64,000 nucleotides of DNA from Naegleria gruberi (Eukaryota). A program made the translations under genes and the position numbers. Shown one piece after another: positions 19,538-63,457 of this stretch; the stretch's first letter is position 1; each line of letters begins with the position of its first letter. The notes under the pieces are model-generated. The model was not told the origin of the DNA and did no database searches. It saw nothing but the letters and a program-made list of their open reading frames with translations. The stretch is from the NCBI GenBank assembly GCA_000004985.1, contig GG738858.1; one strand, 5' to 3'.

Positions 19538-21166
19538 CTAATTTGATGTTCTCAATTTAAAATCACTAAAGTCAATACCCATAACACTATATCTAATCTT
19601 CTTAATGGTATCTTGATCTTTTGCTCCGTTAAGTGAGAAGAAACAATTATCCCTCAATCGACCATTCTCCTCAATTACTTCAACCTCTGTATCGCCAATC
19701 ACAACAAATGATCTGTCGAATGCTTTCAATAGCCAAAAATCTTGATTACCTTCAACAGTTTTGAAATATTCGAGTGAGTCGATAAAATTGCAAAATATGT
19801 TGAGTGATTTTCTATTCTTAAAAGTAGAGGAGTTCTTGTTGGTGTAATCATTGGAAATATTAGTCTTACTAATCATATCTCTCAAAATTTCAGAGAAATA
19901 GAATGTTCGGTCAACTTTTCCATTCCTTAAATTATCAAAATACTTGTCAAAGCATTCACTCTTTGGAAGTTGCAAATTCAAAGCAGATAGTACCTCAGAT
20001 GTGAAATGTTGGCAATTGGCTTTGAATTGGTGATATTGAACTGATCCATTATATTTACAAATAATTTCAGTCAACTTTCTAAATGTTTGCTTAACATTCT
20101 CAGCACCACGTATTTCTCCAATGTCAATTGCTGCAATTGTCTTGTCAGATTTGATTTGTTGAATAGAGTCACTCCTTACAATAACAGTTGATGAGTTGAA
20201 CCATTCAATCTTCCATTCACCAATTAAAAGGCCAGTATGAACAATTCCCATATCAGCATTTGAAAAGTAGCTCATTAACTTGGTCATAAAAGGACTATTA
20301 CCTAAATCAGAAATCAACAACTTGACTCGCAGAAATGGTTCACAATTAAGCTTCTTTGAATTTTGCTTAACAATAGAACTCATAAATTCCCTATTCAATA
20401 ATCTATCTTCACACACCAAGTTTTGAGCATCCACTTCCAAATCGCCTGTCATTCTAGCATCTTTGGGAGTTCTATTATTCTTTCTCAAGAAATCATAATA
20501 TTTCTCTAACTTTTTCTTGGCCATTCCAACTCGATCCTTTTCTAAAAGAGTTAATCTGTTTGCACTATATTGGACATCGGTTGTGGTTGGGTACGCAGTA
20601 GCATCAATAATAGCAGGTGTTGGAGAAATACTTGGCTTTGAGAAAAGTGTTTCATTGATTGATTCAAAAGTTTTGTTGGGTTTGTTCACTGGGTTGACAG
20701 AGGTAGAATTCTGGCCAGCTTGACCATCTGATTCCAAAGTATCTTCCGAGACATTTAGTACTAATCTATTCGAATCATCTTCAAACTTGACTCTTCCACT
20801 CTTTTCATCATCAATTTTCTTCTTCATGATAACTTGTTCCAAAAACACAATTGCAGAAATATTATCAATCTTGTACTTGGACATCTTTTGTTGCAACAGT
20901 TCCTTTTCTTGTTGAATTTTGGCATAATTAGTTTCCTTTGCCAACCCTTCGAATAACTTTCCATTAAAATCATTGTTCATTGTTACAGCATTTATGACAG
21001 TATCGTTCTTGAAATTGTAATGAATACATAAACAAAACAAGTCCCTATTGCTACATTCTCGAAGAGGTTTTGCCTCTGCCTCTTCAATCTCATCACTGGG
21101 TGGACTGATTTCTTCAGAGAATCTAATAATACTTGACGTGTTGCCCATTTTTTTAAATTGTATCAT
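19538..21166 (-). CDS. Hypothetical protein, likely N-myristoylated (MGNTSS at the second in-frame ATG, 21148)
   Basis: A 542-aa ORF with ATGs at 21166 and 21148. No recognizable domain. Its C-terminal ~160 aa is paralogous to the fragment at 22188..22670. Confidence 0.55.
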   Translation of the reverse strand: MIQFKKMGNTSSIIRFSEEISPPSDEIEEAEAKPLRECSNRDLFCLCIHYNFKNDTVINAVTMNNDFNGKLFEGLAKETNYAKIQQEKELLQQKMSKYKIDNISAIVFLEQVIMKKKIDDEKSGRVKFEDDSNRLVLNVSEDTLESDGQAGQNSTSVNPVNKPNKTFESINETLFSKPSISPTPAIIDATAYPTTTDVQYSANRLTLLEKDRVGMAKKKLEKYYDFLRKNNRTPKDARMTGDLEVDAQNLVCEDRLLNREFMSSIVKQNSKKLNCEPFLRVKLLISDLGNSPFMTKLMSYFSNADMGIVHTGLLIGEWKIEWFNSSTVIVRSDSIQQIKSDKTIAAIDIGEIRGAENVKQTFRKLTEIICKYNGSVQYHQFKANCQHFTSEVLSALNLQLPKSECFDKYFDNLRNGKVDRTFYFSEILRDMISKTNISNDYTNKNSSTFKNRKSLNIFCNFIDSLEYFKTVEGNQDFWLLKAFDRSFVVIGDTEVEVIEENGRLRDNCFFSLNGAKDQDTIKKIRYSVMGIDFSDFKLRTSN

Positions 21167-21192
21167 GTATTTTGATCATCTGCTGTCTTTTT

Positions 21193-21211
21193 CACGTTTT
21201 GGAAACGTGAT
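21193..21211. promoter_or_regulatory. Palindromic AAACGTGA pair (TCACGTTT-tgg-AAACGTGA), ~30-45 bp upstream of the 19538..21166 gene
   Basis: Read directly. The same octamer recurs upstream of the 47664..48611 and 49947..50894 genes. Confidence 0.4.
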
Positions 21212-44802: not shown

Positions 44803-46329
44803 ATGTTTCAACATCTCGACAATGACTCCCTCGCAAATATTATGAATTTTCTCAGCCTTTTTGATGTGATTGAAAACTTGGCGTTGGTAAATTCGCGTCT
44901 TTTCCGTTTGATGAACTTGGAAAATGATCATCAAGGAACCATTACGAATTTATTGATGGAAAGAATTTTATTCTCGGAAGAGGAGATGGATCTGATTGGA
45001 ATGTTGAATAGATTGGAGAGGGCTGTGTGTTTTGAGTCTCTTCTGAGTGATTTGGAGAGGGAGGTTGTTGATTGTGGTGTTTTGAAGGAGATTTTTGAGA
45101 GGAATAAATATGAGGAGGTTTCAGTGAAGGAGTGTGTGAAGGGGATGGATTGGAAGAGAGTCGTTAGGATTGAGAAGTATGATGAATTGAGGATTTGTGT
45201 GGAGCTGGGGCGGAGATTAGGCTATTTGGATGCATGTTGGTTGTATGAAAATCAAAAAATAGGGAGGAAACCTTTCCAATTGTTTTATAGTCATGAAATG
45301 GATGGTTACTCTGAAGGTAATCTATTATTTCTAGATTTTCTGCAACTGGTTAAGGCATATGAATTGTCAATGGATAAGATTTACAAAATTCACCTCTACT
45401 TTGTCAATAATCAACTAAAAATCTCGAAAATAGTTTCTCGAGCAAGAGAGGGACAAAAATTAACTGAAAAGGAAATTTTAGTGAAGGATTACAAGTATTT
45501 ATATGAAAAAATGTTGGGATATAGTGGAATTGTTGGTACACTGGACTTGAAAGTGCTCTCTTACCAAGAAGGTGTAGAAAACAATGTTACTATTTCAACT
45601 GTGGATATTCAATCTGCAAAAGTTTATAGAAGCACTTGCTGTACTCTCAGAAATGGTGAGACTAATGTTGGTCAATTATTCGCAGTCAACCAATTTTTCG
45701 ATGCCATTTCAAGACCAACTAAATGTGGAGATTTGAGACTTTCCCAAAAAGGAGACATCACACTGTGGACTATTTCAAGACAGGAAATAAGGAAAATGAT
45801 TAGACCTTTTGTAATTTATCCAGTGTTGTATTTTCCATTAGCAATATATTCACATTTCAAGTTTGTGAATTATGACTTTGGATGGAATGAGACACAAGTT
45901 CATCCATATCTCCACTTTTTCGATTGTTTGGTTTTCACTTTTTTGAGCTTGGTTGGAATAGATAACTTGACAATTAGAATTCGTAGGATTCCCAGAAATG
46001 ATGCCATAATTATGTTGTTGTGCACTTTAGGAATATTTCTTGTCAAGTTAACTATTTGTATATTTGGAACGAGCCACCCACTTCGATCCTTCATTAACAC
46101 CTTTTCATTCTCTGCACCATTCATCCTCTCCAGTGTACCATTCATTTATGGATTAAATTTATATCCAAAGGCATTGTTCTGGTATTGGAGATCAACCAAT
46201 TGGTTCTATAATAATATAGTTGTGAAAAAAACAGGTGGATTTTTGAGGAAATGTGTGGATTGGATTACAAATTATTATTCCTTAAATGGTGTTCAGCATG
46301 ACAGTTCAACTCGTTGCGCAATTAATTAG
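44803..46329 (+). CDS. Hypothetical protein with an N-terminal F-box-like segment and C-terminal multi-pass hydrophobic region
   Basis: ATG at 44803. LANIMNFLSLFDVIENLALVNSRLFRLM resembles an F-box. Several hydrophobic helices occupy the last 180 aa. Confidence 0.45.
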   Translation: MFQHLDNDSLANIMNFLSLFDVIENLALVNSRLFRLMNLENDHQGTITNLLMERILFSEEEMDLIGMLNRLERAVCFESLLSDLEREVVDCGVLKEIFERNKYEEVSVKECVKGMDWKRVVRIEKYDELRICVELGRRLGYLDACWLYENQKIGRKPFQLFYSHEMDGYSEGNLLFLDFLQLVKAYELSMDKIYKIHLYFVNNQLKISKIVSRAREGQKLTEKEILVKDYKYLYEKMLGYSGIVGTLDLKVLSYQEGVENNVTISTVDIQSAKVYRSTCCTLRNGETNVGQLFAVNQFFDAISRPTKCGDLRLSQKGDITLWTISRQEIRKMIRPFVIYPVLYFPLAIYSHFKFVNYDFGWNETQVHPYLHFFDCLVFTFLSLVGIDNLTIRIRRIPRNDAIIMLLCTLGIFLVKLTICIFGTSHPLRSFINTFSFSAPFILSSVPFIYGLNLYPKALFWYWRSTNWFYNNIVVKKTGGFLRKCVDWITNYYSLNGVQHDSSTRCAIN

Positions 46330-46690
46330 GAAATTTACAAATATTGAAATTACAGTTTACAAAAAAGTTAGTGAGTGAAGGTAGTTTCGATCTACCACCT
46401 TAGAATCTACCAAGCTTCCTATGTTCTCCCATTTAAACTATTCACCCACAAATTCTTTTCTCTACATAATTCAAGCTTTATCCTAAAGTTCATCTATAAA
46501 TAGAGATGGTTTTGGTTTTGGATTAAATTTATAAAAAGAATGACAAGATAAATTGTTTGATATGAGAATATTGATATTTATTTGGTTACCAATAAGAGGT
46601 ATTGAATATTACCCAAAAAAAACAAAGTTTACAAAAAATGATAATATTTCAATACTATTGATTGTAATTAATATTGAAACGAATGATGAT

Positions 46691-46849
46691 TTACCAACCA
46701 GCTGGTTTACTACAAGTTGGACATTTCAAACCAACTTTTCCAGATGGAGAACTTTTACATCCAGGGCAAACTCTGTGGGAACAACCATTCTTACAAGAAA
46801 TTGAAGATAAAGTTGAAGCATTGAAACTACACCACTCACACTTGGCCAT
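46691..46849 (-). CDS. 52-aa Cys-rich zinc-ribbon-like micro-protein, copy A (MAKCEWCSFNASTLSSISCKNGCSHRVCPGCKSSPSGKVGLKCPTCSKPAGW)
   Basis: It is below the 60-aa cutoff of the ORF track. It was found as the reverse-complement near-duplicate of 47352..47510. ATG at 46849..46847 and TAA at 46693..46691. Eight Cys in CxxC..C..CxxxCxxC..CxxC spacing. Confidence 0.45.
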   Translation of the reverse strand: MAKCEWCSFNASTLSSISCKNGCSHRVCPGCKSSPSGKVGLKCPTCSKPAGW

Positions 46850-47351
46850 TTCGAAAATATTTCTTTTGATTTTTGGGTTAATAACAAAACAGTTGAATTG
46901 TTTTTTTGTTTGGTGGAAAATGAAATCATGCAGTTGGTTGGCCTATTTATTGTATTTGTTGTTGGAAAGTTATTGGAAACAATCTCTTTGGAACAGGTCT
47001 GAACTTGGATTTTGAGCCACATTTCAATGAAAACACGTGTTGCAAGAAAAGTTCATGACCATCAATTTAATGTTCAGTATTTGTTCATGGTCACGACTGG
47101 ATCTTCAAGATCATAAAAGTTTCGAATAAATCCATGTTGTGTCCATTCTTGATAGTTAACCAATCAATGCAAGAGGGCTATTTAAATTGTAAAACGAAAA
47201 TAAATGGTGAAATAATACTATTCACTCACTGACTCCCTGAAACAATTCTAATATCTCATCATGCAAAATATCTTTCGAATAAATTGAGTTGATCCACAAC
47301 CAATTTCTCAAAACAAATCAAAAAAACAATTCTAAACAATCATTAATCAAA

Positions 47352-47510
47352 ATGGCCAAGTGTGACTGGTGCAGTTTCAATGCTTCAACTTTATCTTCAA
47401 TCTCTTGTAAGAATGGTTGTTCTCATAGAGTTTGTCCTGGATGTAAAAGTTCTCCATCTGGAAAAGTTGGTTTGAAATGCCCAACTTGTAGTAAACCTGC
47501 TGGTTGGTAA
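47352..47510 (+). CDS. 52-aa Cys-rich zinc-ribbon-like micro-protein, copy B (MAKCDWCSF...KPAGW)
   Basis: Internal ATG of track ORF 47289..47510. It is ~93% nt identical to copy A on the opposite strand, with one aa difference (D/E). Confidence 0.45.
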   Translation: MAKCDWCSFNASTLSSISCKNGCSHRVCPGCKSSPSGKVGLKCPTCSKPAGW

Positions 47511-47663
47511 AATTGACCAACTCAAGTTGGAATCTTTCGTTTTTTTGCTAAAGTTTCTTTTTTTTTTCGATATTTCAGATTCCCTTATTCTAATAGTTTA
47601 CATTCCAATAAATGCAACAAATTTAAACTAATGTTTCCATAATAAGAATTATATTTAATGAAT

Positions 47664-48611
47664 TTAGTATACGCATTCTTTCAATGATTTTCCATATTTA
47701 CGCAATTGATTAAAGATTCTAATCAATTGTTCACAATCTTCAATCTTTGGCAATTGATTTCCAGTTTCAAAAGTTGCCGTAGTTTTCTTGGCATCACCAA
47801 CCTCCTCACTGTCCATAATCTTTCCAAAATATTCTCTACTCTGCATCAATTTATCTTCCCATTTGTCTGCGAATGAGCTCACTTCTTTACTTTTTAGGCA
47901 AGAGTTCATGGCCACAGGGATAGCCACACTGCATCCAACTGCCATGGCCACACCAACTCCAGCCACAATAGGAACTCCCACAAAAGCACCAATAAATGTA
48001 GTAATTGCAGCAATTCCCAATCCAACTAACCCAACCAAGGACACAATTCCCAAAATAATGCATGCCCAAAAGTATTTCTTTGCTTTGGCTCTCAGAATAT
48101 TCTCAATATGATTCACAGAAGATTCAAGAGTGCTTCTATACCGTGGATGTGTAATCAGTTTCAAATGATCATGAATTACTGTCATTCTCTTCACATAGGA
48201 TTCCTGGTTGACTTGGTTGAAAATGTCCTTAAATAGCTCAACACCCATTTCACCAATTTCAATAAGGAAATTTCCATGTAACAATATAGCATAAATAGCT
48301 TCCCTAAATGATTCTCTTTCACTTTCTTTCAGAAACAAGTAACAATCCTTAATGCATTTACTCATTTCTTGCTCAGTCGATGAAAAATCTTGTTTTTCCA
48401 TTTCGTCTGCAATTTCTTTCAAATCTTTCTTGTCGTCGTTGTTGTCATTATGAATTGGCTTGTTCTCATTGCTCAGGTCTATATTTTGCCAGGTTTCAAT
48501 GTAGACGTAATCGTCCAAGATGTCAAAACAATCGACAATGTCAAGGCAAGTTTGTTGAGTTTCTTCTGGTTTCTGATTGGAACTATCTTTCTTTGTGTGC
48601 CGTTGACCCAT
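47664..48611 (-). CDS. Hypothetical 315-aa protein: MGQRHT N-myristoylation motif, helical domain, C-terminal Gly/Ala-rich (GxxxG glycine-zipper) TM hairpin
   Basis: The TM hairpin region reads ILGIVSLVGLVGLGIAAITTFIGAFVGVPIVAGVGVAMAVGCSVAIPV. It is a paralog of 49947..50894, with identical length. Confidence 0.55.
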   Translation of the reverse strand: MGQRHTKKDSSNQKPEETQQTCLDIVDCFDILDDYVYIETWQNIDLSNENKPIHNDNNDDKKDLKEIADEMEKQDFSSTEQEMSKCIKDCYLFLKESERESFREAIYAILLHGNFLIEIGEMGVELFKDIFNQVNQESYVKRMTVIHDHLKLITHPRYRSTLESSVNHIENILRAKAKKYFWACIILGIVSLVGLVGLGIAAITTFIGAFVGVPIVAGVGVAMAVGCSVAIPVAMNSCLKSKEVSSFADKWEDKLMQSREYFGKIMDSEEVGDAKKTTATFETGNQLPKIEDCEQLIRIFNQLRKYGKSLKECVY

Positions 48612-48968
48612 TTACTTGAATTGCCGTTTTTTTTGAAAATATTAATGGAGTTGTGGCACAGATATTTATTCGAAACGTGAATTGACAATTGATTTTCTCT
48701 CAATCACTTGTTTGTCTCAAACTTGTAAATTTCTGCTACGATAGAAGGAGGTACATTAATTCTACTCCTATCCTTAAATGACAAGATGTTGGAATGTGCT
48801 AAAAAACGTGATCATTCTTTACAATTTTAACAAGATTCGAAACTTTCCATTGGGTAAAGACTAAATATAAAAAGACTGCAGCTCCACAAATTACCAAGTT
48901 ATCTCCAACCTCTTGAAATATTGAAATTTTGAATCGATTCAATTCTATCTTAAATATTGTAAAAAAAA

Positions 48969-49904
48969 ATGAGTAAACGAAACAGACAAGATTTCGAATA
49001 TATTAAATTAATTACCAATTCGGAGGAAATATTCACGGAAGAGAAAGCAAAAGCTATGAAACTGCACCACCAACAACACGAAGATAATGACATATTTTCC
49101 GATGATATTTGCTTTGAAATAATTTCCATGCTTGATGATTCGTGGTTTATTCTAAATAATTGCACTTTAATTTCAAAACAATTCTGTCAGGTGATCAAGG
49201 AACGCTCTAAACTAGTTATTCAATTTAAAAAACCATTGACAGAGAGACGAGTTGAATTATTAAGGAAAAGTCAATTTATGAATTGTATTGTTAATGTTAA
49301 ATTTAATGAAATGTTGTTGGAATTGAGAGAAAATATCAAATTTATAAGTGAAATGAAACAATTAACATCACTTGATGTTTCTGACAATGAAATTGGAAAT
49401 GTAGGAGCTAAACATATAAGTGAAATGAAACAATTAACATCACTTAATATATGTAATAATCGAATTGGTGATGAAGGAGCTAAATTCATAAGCGAAATGC
49501 AACAATTAACATTACTTGATATTTCTGATAATCATATTGGTGATAAGGGAGTTAAATTTATAAGTGAAATGAAACAATTGACATCATTCAATATTTCTGA
49601 TGATCTAATTGGTAATGTAGGAGCCAAATCTATAAGTGAAATGCAACAATTAACATCACTTGATGTTTCTGATAATCATATTGGTGATAGTGGAGTAAAA
49701 TTCATCAGTGAAATGAAACAATTAACATCACTCAATATTGCTATCAATCGAGTTGGTGATGAAGGAGCCAAACTCATAAGTGAAATGAAACAATTAAGAT
49801 CACTTAATATTTCTGACAATGAACTTGGTGATGAAGGAGTCAAATTCATAAGTGAAATGAAACAATTAAGATCAAATTGTTTGGGTATTGTACAGCAGAA
49901 TTGA
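48969..49904 (+). CDS. F-box-like / RNI-type leucine-rich-repeat protein
   Basis: ATG at 48969. The N-terminus has an F-box-like motif (IFSDDICFEIISMLDDSWF). The LRR part consists of eight near-identical 24-aa repeats ISEMKQLTSL(D/N)(V/I)SDNxIGDxGAKF. Confidence 0.6.
   Translation: MSKRNRQDFEYIKLITNSEEIFTEEKAKAMKLHHQQHEDNDIFSDDICFEIISMLDDSWFILNNCTLISKQFCQVIKERSKLVIQFKKPLTERRVELLRKSQFMNCIVNVKFNEMLLELRENIKFISEMKQLTSLDVSDNEIGNVGAKHISEMKQLTSLNICNNRIGDEGAKFISEMQQLTLLDISDNHIGDKGVKFISEMKQLTSFNISDDLIGNVGAKSISEMQQLTSLDVSDNHIGDSGVKFISEMKQLTSLNIAINRVGDEGAKLISEMKQLRSLNISDNELGDEGVKFISEMKQLRSNCLGIVQQN
49345..49880 (+). repeat. 72-bp-period tandem coding repeat (about 7.5 units) inside the LRR gene
   Basis: Units such as aagtgaaatgaaacaattaacatcacttgatgtttctgacaatgaaattggaaatgtaggagctaaacatat are nearly identical to each other at the DNA level. 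Confidence 0.8.
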
Positions 49905-49946
49905 AAGATTGTTCAACAAATTATTTTCCAAAATGATTTAATTATT

Positions 49947-50894
49947 CTAAATGACACATTCTTTCAATGCTGTTCCATACTTGCTCAATTGATAAAAGAT
50001 ATTAATCAAGTGTTCACATTCTTCAATCTTTGGCAACTTGTTGGCATTTTCATAATCCTTGGTGGTCTTTTCAGCTCTGGTAAATTCTGAACTTTCCATT
50101 GCATTCTTAAAACATTGTTTGCTTTCCATCAATTTATCTTCCCAATTGCCTGCGAATGAACTGACTTCAGTGGCTTCCATGCAAGAGTTCATGACCACAG
50201 GAATGGCCACACTGCATCCAACTGCCATGACCACACCAACTCCAGCCACAATAGGAACACCCACAAAGGCACCAATCACTGTTGTAATTGCAGCAATTCC
50301 CAAACCAACCAAACCAACCATGGACACAACTCCCAAAATAATACTTGCCCAAAAGTATTTCTTTGCTTTGGCTCTCAGAATATTCTCCATATGTTTAATG
50401 GAAGTTTCAAGTTTAGTTAAATATTTGGCATTGTCAAAGTAATCTTCCCAAAACTTGTAAATTGCATTCATTCTCTTTTCATATGATCCTTGGTTGACTT
50501 GATTTAAAATATCAGTAAATAGTTCAACTCCCAATTTACCAACTTTAATAAGGTGATTGCCATGGAGAACGATATTTTCAATTGCCTTGTAAAATGGTTC
50601 TCTCTCACTTGGTTTTAGAAACAGATAACAATCTTGAACACATTTTTGGATTTCGTTTTGAGTTTCAAAAATGTCAGTTTTTTGCAATTCTTTGGAAATT
50701 TCCTTCAAATCTTTCTTGTTTTCTTTCAATTCAATATTTTGCCAATAGTTTTCTATATAAACTCGATTCTCAATCATGTCAAAACAATCAACAATGTCAA
50801 TACTCGTTGAAGAATCTGTTTCTTGAGCAAGTTGCTTGAGATTGAGAGATTGGTGAAGGCCTGTGTCCTTCTTTGTGGTTTGGCGTTGACCCAT
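49947..50894 (-). CDS. Paralog of 47664..48611 (MGQRQT N-myristoylation motif plus a glycine-zipper TM hairpin)
   Basis: Same 315-aa length and collinear similarity throughout. The TM block is nearly identical to its paralog (GLVGLGIAAITTVIGAFVGVPIVAGVGVVMAVGCSVAIPV). Confidence 0.55.
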   Translation of the reverse strand: MGQRQTTKKDTGLHQSLNLKQLAQETDSSTSIDIVDCFDMIENRVYIENYWQNIELKENKKDLKEISKELQKTDIFETQNEIQKCVQDCYLFLKPSEREPFYKAIENIVLHGNHLIKVGKLGVELFTDILNQVNQGSYEKRMNAIYKFWEDYFDNAKYLTKLETSIKHMENILRAKAKKYFWASIILGVVSMVGLVGLGIAAITTVIGAFVGVPIVAGVGVVMAVGCSVAIPVVMNSCMEATEVSSFAGNWEDKLMESKQCFKNAMESSEFTRAEKTTKDYENANKLPKIEECEHLINIFYQLSKYGTALKECVI

Positions 50895-50910: not shown

Positions 50911-50965
50911 AAACGTGAGTTTTGTTAGAAACGTGAAACTCAAAACATATTTATTCGAAACGTGA
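50911..50965. promoter_or_regulatory. Three AAACGTGA octamers (50911-18, 50929-36, 50958-65) in the 5' flank of 49947..50894; one copy at 48673-80 upstream of the paralog
   Basis: ttaAAACGTGAgtttt, agAAACGTGAaact, tattcgAAACGTGAtg; and tattcgAAACGTGAattg at 48667..48684. Confidence 0.4.
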
Positions 50966-51337
50966 TGCGTGTGGTGTTGACCATCATGTCAATTTCTGGT
51001 ACGATAGTAGGTTTATTACAAATTTCTTGTTTTTAATTGGTGAGATGTAGGAGAATATTGTTTTCTTTCTCATCGACTGTGTAACCATTCAATTCGATTT
51101 GCTCCTTAGATCCACCAATATCATTATATGTAATTCCGCAGTCCTAATTGTAACACTGGCATCAATTTTTGGAGGGAGTGGAATACGAATTTGATATTTT
51201 GTACGATCAACACCAATACGTACCAGTTGCCATGAAAGGTATGAGCCTGAGCGAATTCTTCTCTCGATTATTTAACATTGAGTTTTCATAACAAATAAAA
51301 CTCAAATCAGAACTGTTTACTAATATTATTTTGAAAA

Positions 51338-53574
51338 TTAAAGTATTTTCTTTTCGAGTTGTTTGAGAATATTTTCGAGTAACTCAACAATTTTTGTGGT
51401 TCTGTTTTTGCACTTGGTTTCATCGAAATCTGAGAGATTAGTCAATTTCTTGACTTCGTTGTTGATATTCAATGGTTCCTTATTCAAGTATTTCAATCTG
51501 TTTTCATCTGTGGTATCCTTTGTGAATGATTTACCACATAGAGTAAAGTTACCAATTTGGAGATAGCAATTATCCATCTTCTTAGCCAATAATGGTTTGA
51601 TATTGCATAACTTGAGATTACGAGGATATTGCAAGTCGAAATTAGATGCATTCGGATCAGAAAGGAAGTCTTCAATGATTGGTAAAACAGTTGAGAAAAT
51701 CTTTTTAAGCTCATTACTTTGTTTCTTCTTTGATGGGGCAGTGCTGTCATTATTGGCTAATCTAATGATCTTCTTGCTCCATTGTGAATAATTGGATTCC
51801 TCACTGTCATCACTTGCCTTTTTGCCTCCCTTTTTCTTGCTCTTTGTCTTGGTCAATATGGTTGTGAGTTCCTTAAAATCAACAACTTTGTTGTTCAAAA
51901 GATTACTGATCTCAGCCATCATGTAAGAGAACTTGACCTTGGCAAAGTCACACAAGCAAACTTGGAGTACGTGATTGTGCCAAATTGCAATTAATTGCAA
52001 TACATCTGCTTCTTCAACCTTGGAACTGACATTATAGGTGAGAAAGTGTTGGCCATGTTCCTTGCAATGTGCAATAGCAATAAGAGTTGCTAGGACTATA
52101 TCTGAGGCCACTTTTTGTGCCTTTGGGAGGTAATTTTCAGCAATGTGGTGTGTTCTGCTGATCATCTTGTTAATAAGGTGATTCTTCTCATTATTAGTGG
52201 AGAATACAGGACGATTTGCTGAACTCTTTGATTGATGACCAATGAAAATAGGAGTCATGTAATTGTTCATGAAAGTTTCACCAAGATTTTCAATATTGAC
52301 AGTTGTCTTCATGTGGGAGGCAATTTGGTCAAGAAGTTTCAAATATTCTCTATTGCTAACATTCACATTCTTTGTTGGGTGTAGCAATTGATGAATGTTT
52401 TCAAGAATATTTGAGAAATCTTCGCCAACTTCTTGATACATGTGATTCCAAGAATCAACCATTTCTTGATTCTTTTGGTGATTGTGGCAACCAAATAATC
52501 TTCCAAAATCAAGCTTGAGTTTGTCCATTGGTGACAAATCCTTTCCTCTCAAATTCAAAGTACCAAAGATTGCTAGTTCATTAGCATGTTCTGGAACTGT
52601 AATGGTAACAACAATACAATTGTGACTCAAGAAGTGAATGAAATCAACCATTTCTTCTTGTTTCTTGAAAAGCTTTTTGATTTTAAGGATGGAATGCAAG
52701 AAGTTTTTGGCACAATTCATGGCAGAAGTGGAAGTAATCTCCTTTGCTTCTTCGAGCTTGGTGATTATTTCATCAACCTTGCTCTTCTTAAAGTCACCCT
52801 CGTCCATACTGGCCTTCTTTAAAATGTTAGCAAATCCCTTCTCTTCGACAATGTACTTTTTAAAGAATGTCTTTTCCTTTCCTGCTACACCTTCTTCATC
52901 ATTGCAAACCTCAATTCTTGCTTGACCTTTCAGAGTTCCCTTGTGAATCTTCAAGTAAACTTTGCTAATTGTCTCAAAATTTTCTTCATACTTTTTCTTA
53001 TTGATACATTCTCTGAGGGCAGAGTAAAGAATGGAGAGAGAGGTCAATCTTTGTTGACCATCTATTACTTGTTGTCTGTTACCTGCCTTTAGGACAATGG
53101 AGCCAATAAAGTAGCTGCTCTCTGGTTCATTCTTGTTATACTCATTGTAGACATCATCAAGAAGGTCCATAATGTTGTCGATCTCCCAAGCATAAGGACG
53201 TTGGTATTCAGGAATAGAATAGCACAATTCAAAAAGATTGTCAATTGCTCTATTGTTGGTGGTCAACTCCCAAGCTCTTCTTTCTGAGGCAACTATCTTT
53301 GGAGGAACAGGTGGACTGAATGTGAGTGGAGAATCTGTTGAAAATGGAAGAGAGGTATCACTCTTAGAGCTTGATGGAGTTGCTGGTTGTGAAGAAGAGG
53401 AAGGAGTACTGGCGATAATGGTTTGTTCCTTCTTGGTCTTCTTCTTGTCTTTCTTTGGGGTAATGTCAGAGCAGTCTCTGGTGTTTTTCTCTTCTTGTCT
53501 ACCCCCTTTGACCACTCGGGAACCCCTGCTTCACATTCAACTTCATGAACTATTTCACTATTGAAACAGTTCAT
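51338..53574 (-). CDS. DUF262 (GmrSD-N / ParB-like nuclease fold) domain protein with a low-complexity N-region, 2 exons
   Basis: The DUF262 motifs are IPEYQRPYAW ... IDGQQRLTSL and a downstream LNLRGKDL block. The main frame has no ATG before the domain; the track start is GTG. Exon 1 is 53574..53503 (ATG, MNCFNSEIVHEVECEAGVPEWSKG). The 50-nt intron is 53502..53453 (gtagac...ccaaag). Exon 2 is 53452..51338, beginning KDKKKTKKEQ. Phase 0 on both sides. Confidence 0.6.
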
Positions 53575-56455: not shown

Positions 56456-59400
56456 TCAAACTTCTAATAAACTGTTAAAATCAATTGCCCTTCGGAATAT
56501 CTTGGAACCACTTTCAACAATTCTATTATTCTTATTCATTCGTTTTAGGAATTCAGTATTGTATCTTAATGAATAGTGAGCGTAACAAAGTGCTTCAATA
56601 TTGATATCCATTGCCTTTTCAATAAAATCTTCATCGGAAATAATTTCATAGGATGCAAGTTTAAGTGAAGTAACATCACTTTGTACAGCTTTCAATACTA
56701 TTTCAGGATCGTTTCTCATATCAAATGATGCATAACAGAAAGAATTAAACGATTTCCCCTGACCAGAAGCATACATTACACACTCCTTATCCCCAAGGAA
56801 TTTGTTGGATGCATACTGAAGTGCTTCTTCATGGTTTTGAACACATTTCAGGACGACATTTCTGTTATATGCAAACTTATGAGGCACATACTGTAAAACC
56901 TTTCCGTTAACTCCAGCACATTCTAAAATAAACTCTTCCTCATGCTGTAACTCTTCACTGGCAAACAGGAATGCAATAGCATCAGATTTGATAGCTTTTA
57001 ACATAATTTCTCTATCATTTTTGAATTCATGTTTCAACTCGTTAGACAAGTACATAATTGATCGACCATTAAGTTCCAGTGATTTTAAAGCAATTTCTCT
57101 GTCTTCCCTTAATGTAATTGGTATAAAAAGTATATCAAATTGCTTAGGTTCAATTTCTAAAATAAAGGTCCTATCTAGTCTAAGTCTATTCGAAACATAC
57201 ATAAGATTCATCATCCTAGCATTAACAGCTAAAAGGGCAAATTGTCTATCATCTCTAAAAGTATAATCAAATTCATTAAGAGACTTAATACTTAATGCTA
57301 TGGCAGCCATTTCCTTATTGAGAGGAAATGGGATGTTGAGATGTGGCGGTAACCATTTTCTTAACGCTTCCAACACTTCTCCATCACTTTTCATTTCTCC
57401 AGAGGCATAGCGATAACAGCTTGCTGAATATTTTAATCCTGTTAAAATTAATTCCTTGTCATTTTGCAAATCTTCTGATAGGTAGTTACATCCATGACGA
57501 ATTGCATTTAGAGCAATTTCTCTATCATTTCGCAAATATTTTGGAATATATTGAATCAAATAACCATTAATCCTAGTTAACTTCCTAATAAAATCAATAT
57601 TGTTCCTTAATCTTTCAGACACGTACTCGAAAGATGAAGCATTCTCTGAGAATGCAATTGCTTGCACTATTTCCTCCTCATCTCTGTATTCTTCTGGAAC
57701 ATATTTCAGAGGATGAGTATCATATCTGCAAGCTTCATAAACTATTTCTCTATCTAATTCTGATTCATTGATATTTCTTAAGCTCAATCCGTTTCGTACT
57801 GCAACGATTAACAATTCTCTGTCTTGTTGGAGAGAATGACTGGCGTATTTCAAGTTATTTCCATCTAATTGGACAGCCTCTAATACTATGTCTCTGTCTT
57901 GTTTGTATTCTTGTGGTATTTCTTCAATACTTCCAATTCTTCTTACGTATTCTAATATTAAATCTCTATCTTCCTTCAGACTATATCCCAAAAAGTCAGA
58001 TATATTTGACATTGAATTTCTAATTGCTTTTACAACAAAGTCTCTCGAATTTTTCCAAGATTCAGGAGCATACTCAAAGTAGCATCCGTCTCTACCTATT
58101 AAAAACTCTAGTATCTCCTTATCTGTTTTTAATTCTTCTGATGCATAATTATAATTACCAGTATCATATAAAAGTGCTTCCTGTAACAATGACTTATCAT
58201 TTTGCAATTCCGCTGATGCAAACTTTAGAGCTCCGTAATGTTCTTTTATCGCCAACCTGATTATTTCTCGGTCATTTCTTAACTCGTCGTTCAACGATTC
58301 TAAAATTTTACGATCTTGTAATATATAGTCCAATACTAGTTGTCTACTGTTTTTTAGTTCGCCCTTGCAATGTTCTAAGCATACAGGATCTATTCTAATA
58401 ATTCTCAACTGTCTTTCCTCATTAAGAGAATTGAAATAATCTTTAGAAGTCCACATTGCTGAACTATACTGACATTGAATATCAATTAGTTCATCAACAA
58501 AATCACTATGATTAACTAGAGACGAACCACCATAATCAAGAAAGCTTAATGAATTACCTGCTCCTGAAATGCATTCTAGAACGAATTCACGGTCATGAAT
58601 TAATTCTCGAGCGATTCTACTGGAGAATGCGCTAGAATTAACAGAAGAACCAAGCAATACAAGTTCCTTCACAAAACTTCTATCACTACAGAAGTAACCA
58701 TGATCCACATAATACAAAGCCATTCCATTAGATTTTACAGCCTCCATAACAATCTCTTTGTCTTTCTTCAGTTCTTTTGAAACATCCTTCAAACTGTCTC
58801 CTTTCATTTTTACAATTTGTAAAACAAACTCTCTGTCTGATCTTAATTTTTCAGACGCATACGAAAATGAAAACCCTGAATTTTTAGCAGCTAGTAAAAT
58901 AACCTCTTTGTCATTGGAAAATGTTGGAGCATGCTGGAGAACACACGAATATTTAGAATTCTTGATAGCTTCCATCACTATTTCTCTATCTTTTAAATGT
59001 TCTGGAACATACTCGATAACCAAACCATCTTGTTTCACTGCTTCCAACACAATATCTCTAGAATTTTTCAATTGGGATGAAGCAAATTTTAAACATTTTG
59101 GTTGTTGTTTGATAGCTAATTTCATTAATTCATCATCATTATGAAATTCTGGGAGATGTTCAAATAAAATTTCCTCATCATAATATAAGTTTGATTTCAA
59201 TTTTAACACTTTCAAGATAAATTCTCTTTGGCTTTTCAATTTCTTACCAACAAATTTAATTGCCGAATAATGTTCTCGAAGTGCTACCAAAGCAACAGTT
59301 TCATCATTTTGCAAATCCTCTGATGCATATTCTAATAATTGTCCTTCAATTTTAAGAGTTTTTAAAAAGGCTAATTTGCAATCATTGTCAGGAAATGGAT

Positions 59401-59626
59401 GATCTTGAATATATTCACAAGCTGGAATGTTCTTTCTCTTCTTAAATTGTTGTACATGTTCATAAATCTTGTTGTTTTTAGAAACCCGTTCCTTGCAGAC
59501 TGCCGAAAAATGGTTTGCAAGTAAAATAAAACTCAGAGTTTCGGATGCTGAATTGTTAAATACGACCTGATGGTCATTGGAAGGCAAAAAATTTATCAGC
59601 AAATCTGAGAATGAATCTTTCACCAT
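56456..59626 (-). CDS. 1056-aa protein built of ~21 tandem ~48-aa repeats (DUF4116-like: D(R/K)E(I/F)VL.AV(K/R).(N/D)G.AL.YAS.EL(K/R).D)
   Basis: ATG at 59626. Example repeat units: DREIVLEAVKQDGLVIEYVPEHLKDREIVMEAIKNSKYS... and DREFVLQIVKMKGDSLKDVSKELKKDKEIVMEAVKSNGMALYYV... Confidence 0.55.
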   Translation of the reverse strand: MVKDSFSDLLINFLPSNDHQVVFNNSASETLSFILLANHFSAVCKERVSKNNKIYEHVQQFKKRKNIPACEYIQDHPFPDNDCKLAFLKTLKIEGQLLEYASEDLQNDETVALVALREHYSAIKFVGKKLKSQREFILKVLKLKSNLYYDEEILFEHLPEFHNDDELMKLAIKQQPKCLKFASSQLKNSRDIVLEAVKQDGLVIEYVPEHLKDREIVMEAIKNSKYSCVLQHAPTFSNDKEVILLAAKNSGFSFSYASEKLRSDREFVLQIVKMKGDSLKDVSKELKKDKEIVMEAVKSNGMALYYVDHGYFCSDRSFVKELVLLGSSVNSSAFSSRIARELIHDREFVLECISGAGNSLSFLDYGGSSLVNHSDFVDELIDIQCQYSSAMWTSKDYFNSLNEERQLRIIRIDPVCLEHCKGELKNSRQLVLDYILQDRKILESLNDELRNDREIIRLAIKEHYGALKFASAELQNDKSLLQEALLYDTGNYNYASEELKTDKEILEFLIGRDGCYFEYAPESWKNSRDFVVKAIRNSMSNISDFLGYSLKEDRDLILEYVRRIGSIEEIPQEYKQDRDIVLEAVQLDGNNLKYASHSLQQDRELLIVAVRNGLSLRNINESELDREIVYEACRYDTHPLKYVPEEYRDEEEIVQAIAFSENASSFEYVSERLRNNIDFIRKLTRINGYLIQYIPKYLRNDREIALNAIRHGCNYLSEDLQNDKELILTGLKYSASCYRYASGEMKSDGEVLEALRKWLPPHLNIPFPLNKEMAAIALSIKSLNEFDYTFRDDRQFALLAVNARMMNLMYVSNRLRLDRTFILEIEPKQFDILFIPITLREDREIALKSLELNGRSIMYLSNELKHEFKNDREIMLKAIKSDAIAFLFASEELQHEEEFILECAGVNGKVLQYVPHKFAYNRNVVLKCVQNHEEALQYASNKFLGDKECVMYASGQGKSFNSFCYASFDMRNDPEIVLKAVQSDVTSLKLASYEIISDEDFIEKAMDINIEALCYAHYSLRYNTEFLKRMNKNNRIVESGSKIFRRAIDFNSLLEV

Positions 59627-61327: not shown

Positions 61328-63457
61328 ATGTCGAAATCTCCTTCATCTGCTGTTAAACGTTTAATGAGAGATTGGAAGGAGGTTCTCGATTATCCATTAG
61401 AATATATCTATGCCCAACCATATCCAATTATGAATAATGGACAAGTAGAAGGATATGACATGTACAATTGGTTTGCAACATTGCTGGTTCCTGAGAGTGT
61501 TAGTACATGTACTGCAATTTCATTGACCTTAACTTTCAATGATAATTATCCAATTGTTCCACCAAATGTGAAATGTCTTTCCGTTATTGCCCATCCTCAT
61601 GTATTTGGTTCATATATTTGTTTAGACATGCTATCAGTTCCTTACAAGTATAACGGTACATGGGATTCCTGGTCTGCTTGGTCTTCCACATACTCTGTCT
61701 TATCCATTTTACTTCAATTAGAATCATTCTTGTTGGATAAGTATTTATATTCGAAATTTTCGGTTATCAAGAATGCAGAATATAAAGAACTCATTGAAAT
61801 GGGACATGATCCAAAGAATGCCAAGTTTTGGCCTTGGGCTCCGCATTGGGGCTCTATAAACTCTCAAATTCCAACAGCATTGAAATCATCTAATGAGATT
61901 GGAAACACTCAAATACTGAGAACAAAATCATCCAAAAGTAAGAAAATCAATATCAATGGTTCTTCCACTGCTACATTGGATGTTATTCAATCAGAGTGGA
62001 AAGGAGCTAGCAGCACATTGGAAGTTCTTTCCTCACTCAAATCAAACGATAATCAGTTCAAAGGAGAAAAATCGAGCAAAACGAATACTTCAATCGTTAT
62101 GATTAATGGAAAACCAATGGAAAAGATTACTAACACATTTGGTGAAGTAGTATTGACTCAAAATCAAGTAATGGAAAGTTTAAGACACAGAGCTAGCTTA
62201 TTGAATGTGAAACCTACTGAAATAGTTTCATATAAAGACTTGAAATTCAACCATCGATTGGATATTATGAAATTACCACCAGAAATTATCAGAGAAATAT
62301 TCAGTTATTTAGACTTTTCAGATTTGAAGAGTGGTGTGGAACAGACATGTCACTATTTGAAAGGTATTGCATCGAGCAAAGCAATCATTCAGGAACGGGA
62401 ATTAATATGTTTCCATTCAAAAGTCACATTTAAGGAAGATACTTTGGGAATTGGATTGAATGTTGAAGTTAAACCAAACGGTTACGTTGATAATATCAGT
62501 TCTCCAATGGACCTAGTCTCTAGAAATGCCTTTTACAATGATAATGCTGTAAAGAGTGCTTGGGGAATTGAAACCAAATTCTGGATTCCAATTTTTATCA
62601 ATAAGAAACATGCTGACTTTGAATTATTCAAATCAAGTGTGAAAGCCATTTACAATGCTCATCCTTCCATCACCAAGGAAAAGTCAAAGACTTACTCTGA
62701 TCTCTTCAATTCTCCAGAAGTCTACATTGATCTGATTTGCAAGATTATGAACTCAATGATAGTTGACCTCATGAAGGGTGAAGTACATGCCTCAATCAAG
62801 TATTTGCAAGGTTATTTGTATTTCCACAGATGGCTGCTATATATCTTGGAAATCTTCCCATTTACAACCAATGCCATTGAAAGAAAGGTCAAGAATTTCG
62901 TTAATCGCGAACATTTGAGAAACAAATATAATTGTCCAAACTTGGGTGAGTTCTTAATCTTGCTGTCAGTGCTGGGACCTGCAAATTTAAATTGGGATTC
63001 AGTCAAGTATGCCATTGTGGAAGAAACTTGCACTAGAAATGTGTTGTGGGCTGTTAAAATGTTTCCAGAATTGGCAAATCTTTCAATCGAGCAACCTAAA
63101 CGAATTGAAAAGACTTGGAAGGCAAATATGGTTTCTTGCAAATTGCTAATGTTCCACGTCTTTTTCTTAAAGACAGTAATTGAGAAGGAGCACGCAGGAA
63201 GATCTTTGGATGAAGTTGCCAGATTATATGATTTGAATTTTGGATTATCACCTGAAACTCAAGATGGACAAGATTTGGAAGAGTTGGTACAGGTTGCCAT
63301 TTTCAAGAATAATAATGCACAGGACTTTGAAGAATTCTTGGAATATGTGGGGTTGGATGAGCAGCTGAATAGTCGAGAAAAGATATTGACCTTTTTGGAA
63401 TATTGTGTGAAAACCTCTGAACAGAGAAGATACCACAAAGTTCCTCCAAATAAATAA
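61328..63457 (+). CDS. Ubiquitin-conjugating E2 (UBC fold, HPH-x-GxIC active site) fused to an F-box and a ~400-aa C-terminal region
   Basis: ATG at 61328. The N-terminal UBC fold has VKRLMRDWKE, IAHPHVFGSYICLDML (active-site Cys) and W-rich helices. The F-box-like motif is LDIMKLPPEIIREIFSYLDFSDLKSGVEQTCHYLKGIA at residues ~310-350. Confidence 0.6.
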   Translation: MSKSPSSAVKRLMRDWKEVLDYPLEYIYAQPYPIMNNGQVEGYDMYNWFATLLVPESVSTCTAISLTLTFNDNYPIVPPNVKCLSVIAHPHVFGSYICLDMLSVPYKYNGTWDSWSAWSSTYSVLSILLQLESFLLDKYLYSKFSVIKNAEYKELIEMGHDPKNAKFWPWAPHWGSINSQIPTALKSSNEIGNTQILRTKSSKSKKININGSSTATLDVIQSEWKGASSTLEVLSSLKSNDNQFKGEKSSKTNTSIVMINGKPMEKITNTFGEVVLTQNQVMESLRHRASLLNVKPTEIVSYKDLKFNHRLDIMKLPPEIIREIFSYLDFSDLKSGVEQTCHYLKGIASSKAIIQERELICFHSKVTFKEDTLGIGLNVEVKPNGYVDNISSPMDLVSRNAFYNDNAVKSAWGIETKFWIPIFINKKHADFELFKSSVKAIYNAHPSITKEKSKTYSDLFNSPEVYIDLICKIMNSMIVDLMKGEVHASIKYLQGYLYFHRWLLYILEIFPFTTNAIERKVKNFVNREHLRNKYNCPNLGEFLILLSVLGPANLNWDSVKYAIVEETCTRNVLWAVKMFPELANLSIEQPKRIEKTWKANMVSCKLLMFHVFFLKTVIEKEHAGRSLDEVARLYDLNFGLSPETQDGQDLEELVQVAIFKNNNAQDFEEFLEYVGLDEQLNSREKILTFLEYCVKTSEQRRYHKVPPNK

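Follow-up and report, generated by a model that had tools for sequence, protein, structure and literature searches.

Proteins held in a membrane by a lipid together with a helical hairpin are already known. Lunapark-type proteins of the endoplasmic reticulum (ER) combine Gly2 myristoylation, two closely spaced transmembrane segments and cytosolic helical or coiled-coil regions. The Inc proteins of chlamydiae, such as InaC (CT813) and IncB, anchor cytosol-facing helical domains by a bilobed hydrophobic domain of ~40–60 residues, while in syntaxin-17, ~300 residues long, a basic juxtamembrane linker joins a helical cytosolic N-terminal part to a Gly-rich hairpin of two helices, after which comes a cytosolic tail. 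In the ClyA-family toxins (ClyA/HlyE, NheA/Hbl, AhlB/C, MakA, and XaxAB/YaxAB), all-helical proteins of ~300–360 residues, the third quarter of the chain contains a hydrophobic head segment, rich in Gly and Ala, at the tip of long helices. Here we describe two genes of the amoeboflagellate Naegleria gruberi, named paralogues A and B, in a 64,000-nt stretch of nuclear DNA (contig GG738858.1, hereafter the window), both on a 782-kb scaffold. A prediction made from the letters of this DNA (the original prediction) had described their products as proteins with an N-myristoylation motif and a glycine-zipper hairpin. The family resembles each of the above systems in outline and is homologous to none of the known lipid-plus-hairpin anchored membrane proteins. 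The reading that we favour, with about even confidence, is that A and B are cytosol-facing membrane proteins, which would be anchored through a myristate at the N terminus and a hairpin of helices and would display helical domains in the cytosol.

Both genes encode proteins of 315 residues and lie on the minus strand, with a plus-strand LRR gene between them, as originally described (Table 1). The two proteins are 60% identical (BLASTP E = 2e-126), and the coding sequences have diverged with a synonymous divergence (dS) of 0.77 and a nonsynonymous divergence (dN) of 0.25, which gives an overall dN/dS of 0.32 by the Nei–Gojobori method and values of 0.16–0.34 in every segment. Because the reading frames are intact, 60% identical at the protein level and constrained to this dN/dS, we conclude that A and B, which are also of the same length, are real, tandemly duplicated paralogous genes. 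Paralogue B is 100% identical to N. gruberi XP_002679324, and the database annotation of both genes goes no further than hypothetical or predicted protein. The similarity between the two loci does not extend beyond the coding sequence, the ~11 nt that follow its stop codon and, upstream, two short blocks that reach to ~135 nt before the ATG; given these boundaries, a duplicated unit including the LRR gene was rejected. The LRR gene is a neighbour of the pair and not a member of the family, and tblastn detected no third copy in the window.

Within the databases searched, A and B are an orphan pair found only in N. gruberi. A word-seeded search of 5.8 billion proteins returned A and B only, and when 1.84 billion representatives were searched exhaustively with an HMMER profile, the pair came back with two spurious repeat proteins, a TPR-repeat protein and a tandem-repeat protein, rejected as relatives since their scores are summed over 7–8 repeats. 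Scans of Pfam, NCBIfam, and PADLOC gave nothing above threshold, PDB searches with a single sequence and with a profile reached a best E of 0.2–0.9, back-translated scans of viral and metagenome contigs revealed no relative, and megablast against phage records found nothing. The view that the pair belongs to no recognisable family is therefore upheld: no SNARE, tetraspanin, ApoL, ClyA/HBL, or other Pfam, NCBIfam, or PDB family rises above threshold. As for the two families that had been named as possible explanations of the architecture, the proteins carry no SNARE or syntaxin domain, and they lack the tetraspanin architecture of four transmembrane helices and a large extracellular loop with a CCG motif, having a single hydrophobic stretch and no Pfam match. 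The sub-threshold matches fall nearly all on the hairpin, their targets having two adjacent hydrophobic helices (InaC, E = 0.014 and 0.028; MakA, E = 0.14; AopB, E = 0.2; IncB; DUF2207_C; DUF6861; aquaporin transmembrane helices 1–2), and they reflect its composition and architecture, not ancestry. No paper turned up in literature searches with the locus tags and accessions, and those on Naegleria with ApoL found nothing relevant.

The N termini, MGQRHTKK in A and MGQRQTTKK in B, satisfy the PROSITE myristoylation pattern PS00008 at Gly2, in agreement with the original prediction, and carry a Thr at position 6 with Lys-Lys after it. M1, G2, Q3, R4, T6, and K8 are invariant between the copies; the next ~20 residues contain insertions and deletions. 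According to the hydropathy profile, the N terminus is hydrophilic and a signal peptide is absent from both proteins. N. gruberi is a eukaryote, so Gly2 myristoylation is available to A and B, and with no hydrophobic signal peptide in the way it may reasonably be inferred that both are myristoylated co-translationally. Seven cysteines are kept between A and B, and Cys238, placed just after the hairpin in both copies, could be a palmitoylation site. The last residues, Cys-Val-Tyr in A and Cys-Val-Ile in B (47664–47672 and 49947–49955), keep a Cys at position −3 and do not form a canonical CaaX box.

Residues 180–235 make up the only hydrophobic stretch of either protein, the next best 19-residue window having an apparent insertion free energy (dGapp) of at least +7.7 on the Hessa biological scale. 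These 56 residues include no charged residue, 9 Gly, and 7–9 Ala, reach a Kyte–Doolittle maximum of 2.6–2.7, and are 89% identical between A and B in protein and 90% in DNA. Two lobes are parted by the segment TT-x-IGAFVGVP, with a conserved proline near the centre (P214) and a second one at P232. The stretch matches the string quoted in the original prediction as a conserved Gly/Ala-rich hairpin, although the position given there, C-proximal, is loose, as 80 residues follow. Its first half (181–203) has a dGapp of −1.2 to −2.1 kcal/mol and should therefore insert unaided. The flank that precedes it, RAKAKK, is strongly basic (net charge +3 to +4), which indicates that the N side is cytosolic (N-in). 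The second half (~206–235), with a dGapp of +1.6 to +2.7, is typical of the partner helix in a hairpin.

The full-length AlphaFold model has a predicted local distance difference test (pLDDT) value of only 43.9, because the family consists of two sequences. A construct without the N-terminal 59 residues gave one model with a pLDDT of 58.8 and a predicted template-modelling score of 0.50, the other four being at 45–48. It is composed of seven helices, of which the long helices ~157–211 and 215–266 (full-length numbering) run antiparallel with the hydrophobic stretch at their tip. Both models place a turn at G212–V213–P214 between two long helices, the remainder being helical. Residues ~60–179, which include the kept blocks KCxxDCYLFLKxSERE and LHGNxLIxxGxxGVELFxDIxNQVNQ, and residues 236–315, with the kept Cys238, Cys293, and Cys313 and the ends CVY and CVI, are helical in the models; the α-helical domain of the original prediction thus reappears, in models of low confidence. 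The Foldseek comparison that had been proposed brought out no significant match: no hit lies below E = 1.2 for the full-length model, and for the truncated one there is none at E ≤ 0.001, the best being at 0.3, with TM-scores ≤ 0.34. The hits are generic helical bundles overall, among which ClyA-type toxins recur non-significantly, and we take the modelled resemblance to the ClyA fold as a lead only.

In the arrangement proposed here, the first anchor would be the myristate on Gly2, aided by the adjoining Lys-Lys, and the second the uncharged helix-turn-helix hairpin 180–235, which would enter the bilayer from the cytosol and return, as in the chlamydial Inc proteins, syntaxin-17, and the transmembrane region of mitofusin. 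A helical N-domain of ~120 residues and a helical C-domain of ~80 residues would both be cytosolic. The hairpin, rich in small residues, would pack tightly as an anchor and might also mediate self-association, and the flanking helices would be the functional part, in binding or scaffolding.

Comparison with the known systems brings out a similar architecture and clear differences. InaC is the best NCBIfam match of both paralogues, and the match runs across the hairpin; however, it scores 14–15 bits against a cut-off of 200 bits and is driven by hydrophobic composition, while IncB is at E = 1.4. Inc proteins are type III substrates of bacteria and carry the hairpin close to the N terminus, whereas A and B are products of nuclear eukaryotic genes, with a central hairpin and a myristoylation motif, and the exhaustive HMMER search detected no chlamydial or bacterial homologue. 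Unlike syntaxin-17, A and B have no SNARE or Syntaxin domain in Pfam at E up to 1, and hhalign against a human STX17 sequence, which itself matches the Pfam SNARE domain, yields a probability of 6% for an alignment of 12 juxtamembrane columns. The zippers of STX17 are of the true GxxxG kind, and it lacks a myristoylation motif; the tail of A and B is helical and 80 residues long. In Lunapark the hairpin is close to the N terminus and the C terminus carries a zinc finger, unlike in A and B, which show no sequence likeness to it, with no Pfam match. The ClyA-family toxins are bacterial and secreted, whereas A and B are eukaryotic, with a cytosolic lipidation motif and a more strongly hydrophobic hairpin, and have no significant sequence, profile, or fold match to these toxins.

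Several points weigh against the anchor reading. The second half of the hairpin is marginal on its own, which leaves room for a single-span type II topology. The C-terminal flank is not basic, its net charge being +1 in A and −2 in B. The models are of low confidence (pLDDT 44 and 59, one of five at 59), and the top natural Foldseek proteins for the truncated one are AhlB, AhlC, and MakA, none of them significant. Sequence cannot distinguish an anchor from a pore, and no expression or proteomic record was found for A or B.

Among the alternatives, a latent α-helical membrane-permeabiliser fares best, and we consider it unlikely. A and B would then rest as ClyA, AhlB, MakA, or XaxAB do and, by analogy with the colicins, the Bcl-2 proteins, and ApoL, would keep the hairpin hidden within the tip of a bundle of helices until triggered insertion and oligomerisation into a pore, the myristate targeting the membrane from the cytosolic side. 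The chains resemble the ClyA type in size and layout, with 315 residues in which helices are followed by a Gly/Ala-rich segment of ~55 residues in the third quarter and then by helices again; ClyA has 303 residues with AGVVAGPFGLIISYSIAAGVV at residues 180–200. The long antiparallel hairpin of the truncated model, with the hydrophobic stretch at its tip, and the three toxins that head its Foldseek list point the same way, as do the AopB match and a colinear sub-threshold NCBIfam match to MakA (protein 158–233 against profile 166–236). Nevertheless, nothing in the fold comparison is significant and the model is of low confidence, the MakA match scores 11.1 bits against a cut-off of 320 bits, the pair aligns to E. 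coli ClyA in hhalign with a probability of 0.45%, and Pfam HlyE, HBL, ApoL, colicin, and Bcl-2 do not match at E up to 1. Moreover, the first helix is hydrophobic enough, at its Kyte–Doolittle values, for co-translational insertion, and the conservation of the hairpin is mostly accounted for by low dS, as described below.

The glycines do not help the permeabiliser. The original prediction had seen in them a GxxxG zipper of the kind that occurs in pore- or oligomer-forming membrane proteins. By the definition of Kim et al. 2005, a glycine zipper is (G/A/S)xxxGxxxG or GxxxGxxx(G/S/T) within a transmembrane helix, and neither pattern occurs in either copy. The only GxxxG of the hairpin, G208–G212, is located at the predicted turn, and the GxxxG and small-xxx-small counts are equalled by 14–100% of 5000 composition-preserving shuffles of the hairpin. 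A small-xxx-small ladder of A (G218–A222–G226–A230–A234), four in a row, is broken in B by Val at 222 and 234. The step from a Gly-rich hairpin to a pore- or oligomer-forming zipper is not supported, since the motifs are no commoner than chance for this composition and the conservation extends to synonymous sites. On pore formation itself, the evidence decides neither way. The more specific proposal, that A and B are N-myristoylated eukaryotic pore-formers of the ClyA/AhlB kind, acting from the cytosolic face and having arisen or diverged beyond recognition in the N. gruberi lineage, is very unlikely.

Two other readings concern the way in which the stretch meets the membrane. The likelier, which we judge quite unlikely, is a monotopic hairpin of ER or lipid droplets (class I lipid-droplet type, oleosin- or caveolin-like) that would dip into one leaflet or monolayer around the central proline. 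It would suit the loop TT-x-IGAFVGVP, devoid of charged or strongly polar residues, the conserved P214 with P232 as a second proline, and a second half too weakly hydrophobic to span alone, and both termini would be cytosolic, compatible with myristoylation. Yet 56 residues are enough for two full spans, the first half has the score of a genuine transmembrane helix, the proline-knot pattern of oleosins is absent, and no Pfam family matches. Next in order, and improbable too, is a single-pass type II protein in which 181–203 alone would span, so that the Gly/Ala/Val-rich second half and the last 80 residues, among them the conserved Cys238, Cys293, and Cys313, would be lumenal or extracellular. 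The dGapp of the second half, the non-basic C-flank, and the seven cysteines conserved between the paralogues would agree with it, but a 30-residue charge-free segment of Val, Ile, Ala, and Gly would hardly be stable in water, the second half is paired with the first helix in both AlphaFold models, and marginal second helices commonly insert as hairpins. That A and B are spurious or decaying, functionless open reading frames (ORFs), as the failure to find homologues in the databases searched or any literature and expression record might suggest, is highly improbable, since two full-length 315-residue frames are kept at a dS of ~0.8–2 and a dN/dS of 0.32, together with the N-terminal motif and the promoter blocks.

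The central part of the two genes differs from the rest in its synonymous sites. Whereas the flanks have a dS of 1.0–2.0, the hairpin has one of 0.25 and the ten codons that precede it one of 0; the dN/dS of the hairpin (0.22) is not reduced relative to the other segments. Where A and B share a residue that has degenerate codons, they also share the codon in 53 of 61 cases within residues 166–240 versus 80 of 122 outside (Fisher p = 0.003), an excess that persists despite a higher share of four-fold degenerate residues in the hairpin (67% versus 36% outside). The best 210-nt window contains 17 differences between A and B versus ~56 expected, a value that no permutation reached, and an identical run of 42 nt has a permutation p of 0.0003; a scan of synonymous sites only gives p = 0.011 with 60-codon windows and p = 0.09–0.19 with shorter ones. 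Gene conversion, or a later homogenisation that left a younger tract, is the simplest reading of these ~210 nt (codons ~168–238) and a probable one. As the synonymous sites of the hairpin are also kept, conversion is favoured over an extra amino-acid constraint, and the chief argument for the hairpin sequence being functionally special falls away with it. A selective cause at the nucleotide level is possible.

The promoter motifs that the original prediction had noted are there: two upstream blocks are common to A and B, one of them with TCACGTTT (AAACGTGA). The exact 19-mer TCACGTTTCGAATAAATAT of block 1 is found in the window only at these two promoters, and block 2 (21 nt), ~95–135 nt before the ATG, nowhere else in the window; in A and B the blocks stand at corresponding distances from the start codon. 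The shorter motif AAACGTGA has 12 sites in the window versus 1.35 expected (~9-fold), and no shuffle reached 12; seven of the 12 sites are intergenic and less than 200 nt from a start codon, five being around A and B and two in a palindrome. The upstream blocks have been kept while coding dS is near or above 1, which suggests that they are functional elements, and A and B would probably be co-regulated through the shared ACGT-core element TCACGTTT. The palindrome, a perfect TCACGTTT-cca-AAACGTGA at 21192–21210, lies 26–44 nt before the ATG of an ORF at 19538–21166 (minus strand), which encodes 542 residues with a weak PPPDE/Peptidase_C97 match. Its symmetry suggests a dimeric ACGT-core binding factor, and because the same motif stands upstream of each, this ORF and the A/B pair may share a regulator. 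Literature searches on Naegleria promoter motifs found no description of the A/B motif.

Table 1. Positions of paralogues A and B, the intervening LRR gene and their elements in the window
Feature	Position	Strand	Description
Paralogue A, coding sequence	47664..48611	-	315 aa + stop; XP_002679323 / D2V9F2 / NAEGRDRAFT_47681; from ORF listing and database identity
Paralogue B, coding sequence	49947..50894	-	315 aa + stop; XP_002679324 / D2V9F4 / NAEGRDRAFT_79063; from ORF listing
LRR gene between A and B	48969..49904	+	311 aa, 72-nt tandem repeat units; Pfam LRR_6 7e-35, LRR_8 2.4e-18
A, codons 1-8, MGQRHTKK	48588..48611	-	Gly2 N-myristoylation consensus (PS00008), then basic pair
B, codons 1-8, MGQRQTTK	50871..50894	-	Gly2 N-myristoylation consensus (PS00008)
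A, hairpin, codons 180-235	47907..48074	-	56 uncharged Gly/Ala/Val/Ile-rich residues; predicted helix-turn-helix, turn GVP 212-214
B, hairpin, codons 180-235	50190..50357	-	same 56-residue hydrophobic stretch
A, central low-dS tract, codons ~168-238	47898..48110	-	probable gene-conversion tract
B, central low-dS tract, codons ~168-238	50181..50393	-	partner of the probable conversion tract
A, upstream block 1, TCACGTTTCGAATAAATAT	48662..48680	-	51-69 nt before ATG; AAACGTGA on opposite strand
B, upstream block 1, identical 19-mer TCACGTTTCGAATAAATAT	50947..50965	-	53-71 nt before ATG
A, upstream block 2, CTATCGTAGCAGAAATTTACA	48724..48744	-	19/21 positions as in B
B, upstream block 2, CTATCGTACCAGAAATTGACA	50987..51007	-	19/21 positions as in A
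Two more AAACGTGA copies	50911..50936	+	17-42 nt before ATG of B
AAACGTGA copy, divergent A/LRR intergenic region	48804..48811	+	193 nt from ATG of A, 165 nt from ATG of LRR gene

The genes around the pair are of ordinary Naegleria types: HydF, a Myb protein, a DUF4116 repeat protein, F-box and LRR proteins. GC content is even across the paralogues and their neighbours (31–37%), and for this reason, and because the searches above found no viral or bacterial relatives, a giant-virus or bacterial origin of the pair was rejected. The intervening LRR gene contains, at 49265–49946, seven repeat units of 72 nt (24 residues) that are 63–84% identical in DNA, so that the repeats have recently expanded or been homogenised. 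Directly 3′ of paralogue A, an inverted repeat (46690–46854 and 47347–47511) has arms of 165 nt, 95% complementary, and a spacer of 492 nt; its right arm holds the 3′ part of a 73-residue Cys-rich ORF (47289–47510, plus strand) with CxxC-type motifs, which suggests a small gene duplicated head to head.

Adjoining paralogue B, the gene at 51338–53515 (minus strand) encodes a 725-residue protein with a GmrSD_N/DUF262 domain (Pfam 4e-32) and a Ser/Pro/Lys-rich region N-terminal of it. The protein strongly matches models of bacterial defence systems (PADLOC HEC-06, 9e-41; Orf5; SspE), and a prokaryotic defence-type domain is thus present inside a eukaryotic nuclear gene. Farther away are a 508-residue protein (44803–46329, plus strand) whose N terminus is weakly F-box-like (E = 0.17) and whose C-terminal third is hydrophobic and apparently multi-spanning, a 1056-residue protein of ~22 DUF4116 repeats (56456–59626, minus strand; Pfam 3e-185), and a 709-residue ORF (61328–63457, plus strand) with an unusual fusion of ubiquitin-conjugating (UQ_con) and F-box-like domains.

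A and B were already in the databases as hypothetical proteins; what is new here is the orphan family, the proposed dual-anchor architecture, the probable conversion tract, and the shared promoter elements. Protist genomes commonly encode orphan membrane proteins, and that of N. gruberi has thousands of orphans. If the anchor reading is right, A and B would add one more lineage-restricted family of protist membrane proteins, and the pair would be a clean example of dual anchoring by lipid and hairpin, with the central hairpin-coding segment homogenised by gene conversion between tandem paralogues. TCACGTTT / AAACGTGA is a candidate cis-regulatory element of Naegleria. That this free-living amoeba has a ClyA-like pore-former which works inside the cell and is targeted by a lipid is a minority possibility; such a protein might, for instance, execute cell death or attack phagosomal or endosymbiotic bacteria. 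If A and B did permeabilise membranes, they would matter much more, as they would bear on how eukaryotes evolve membrane-attack proteins.

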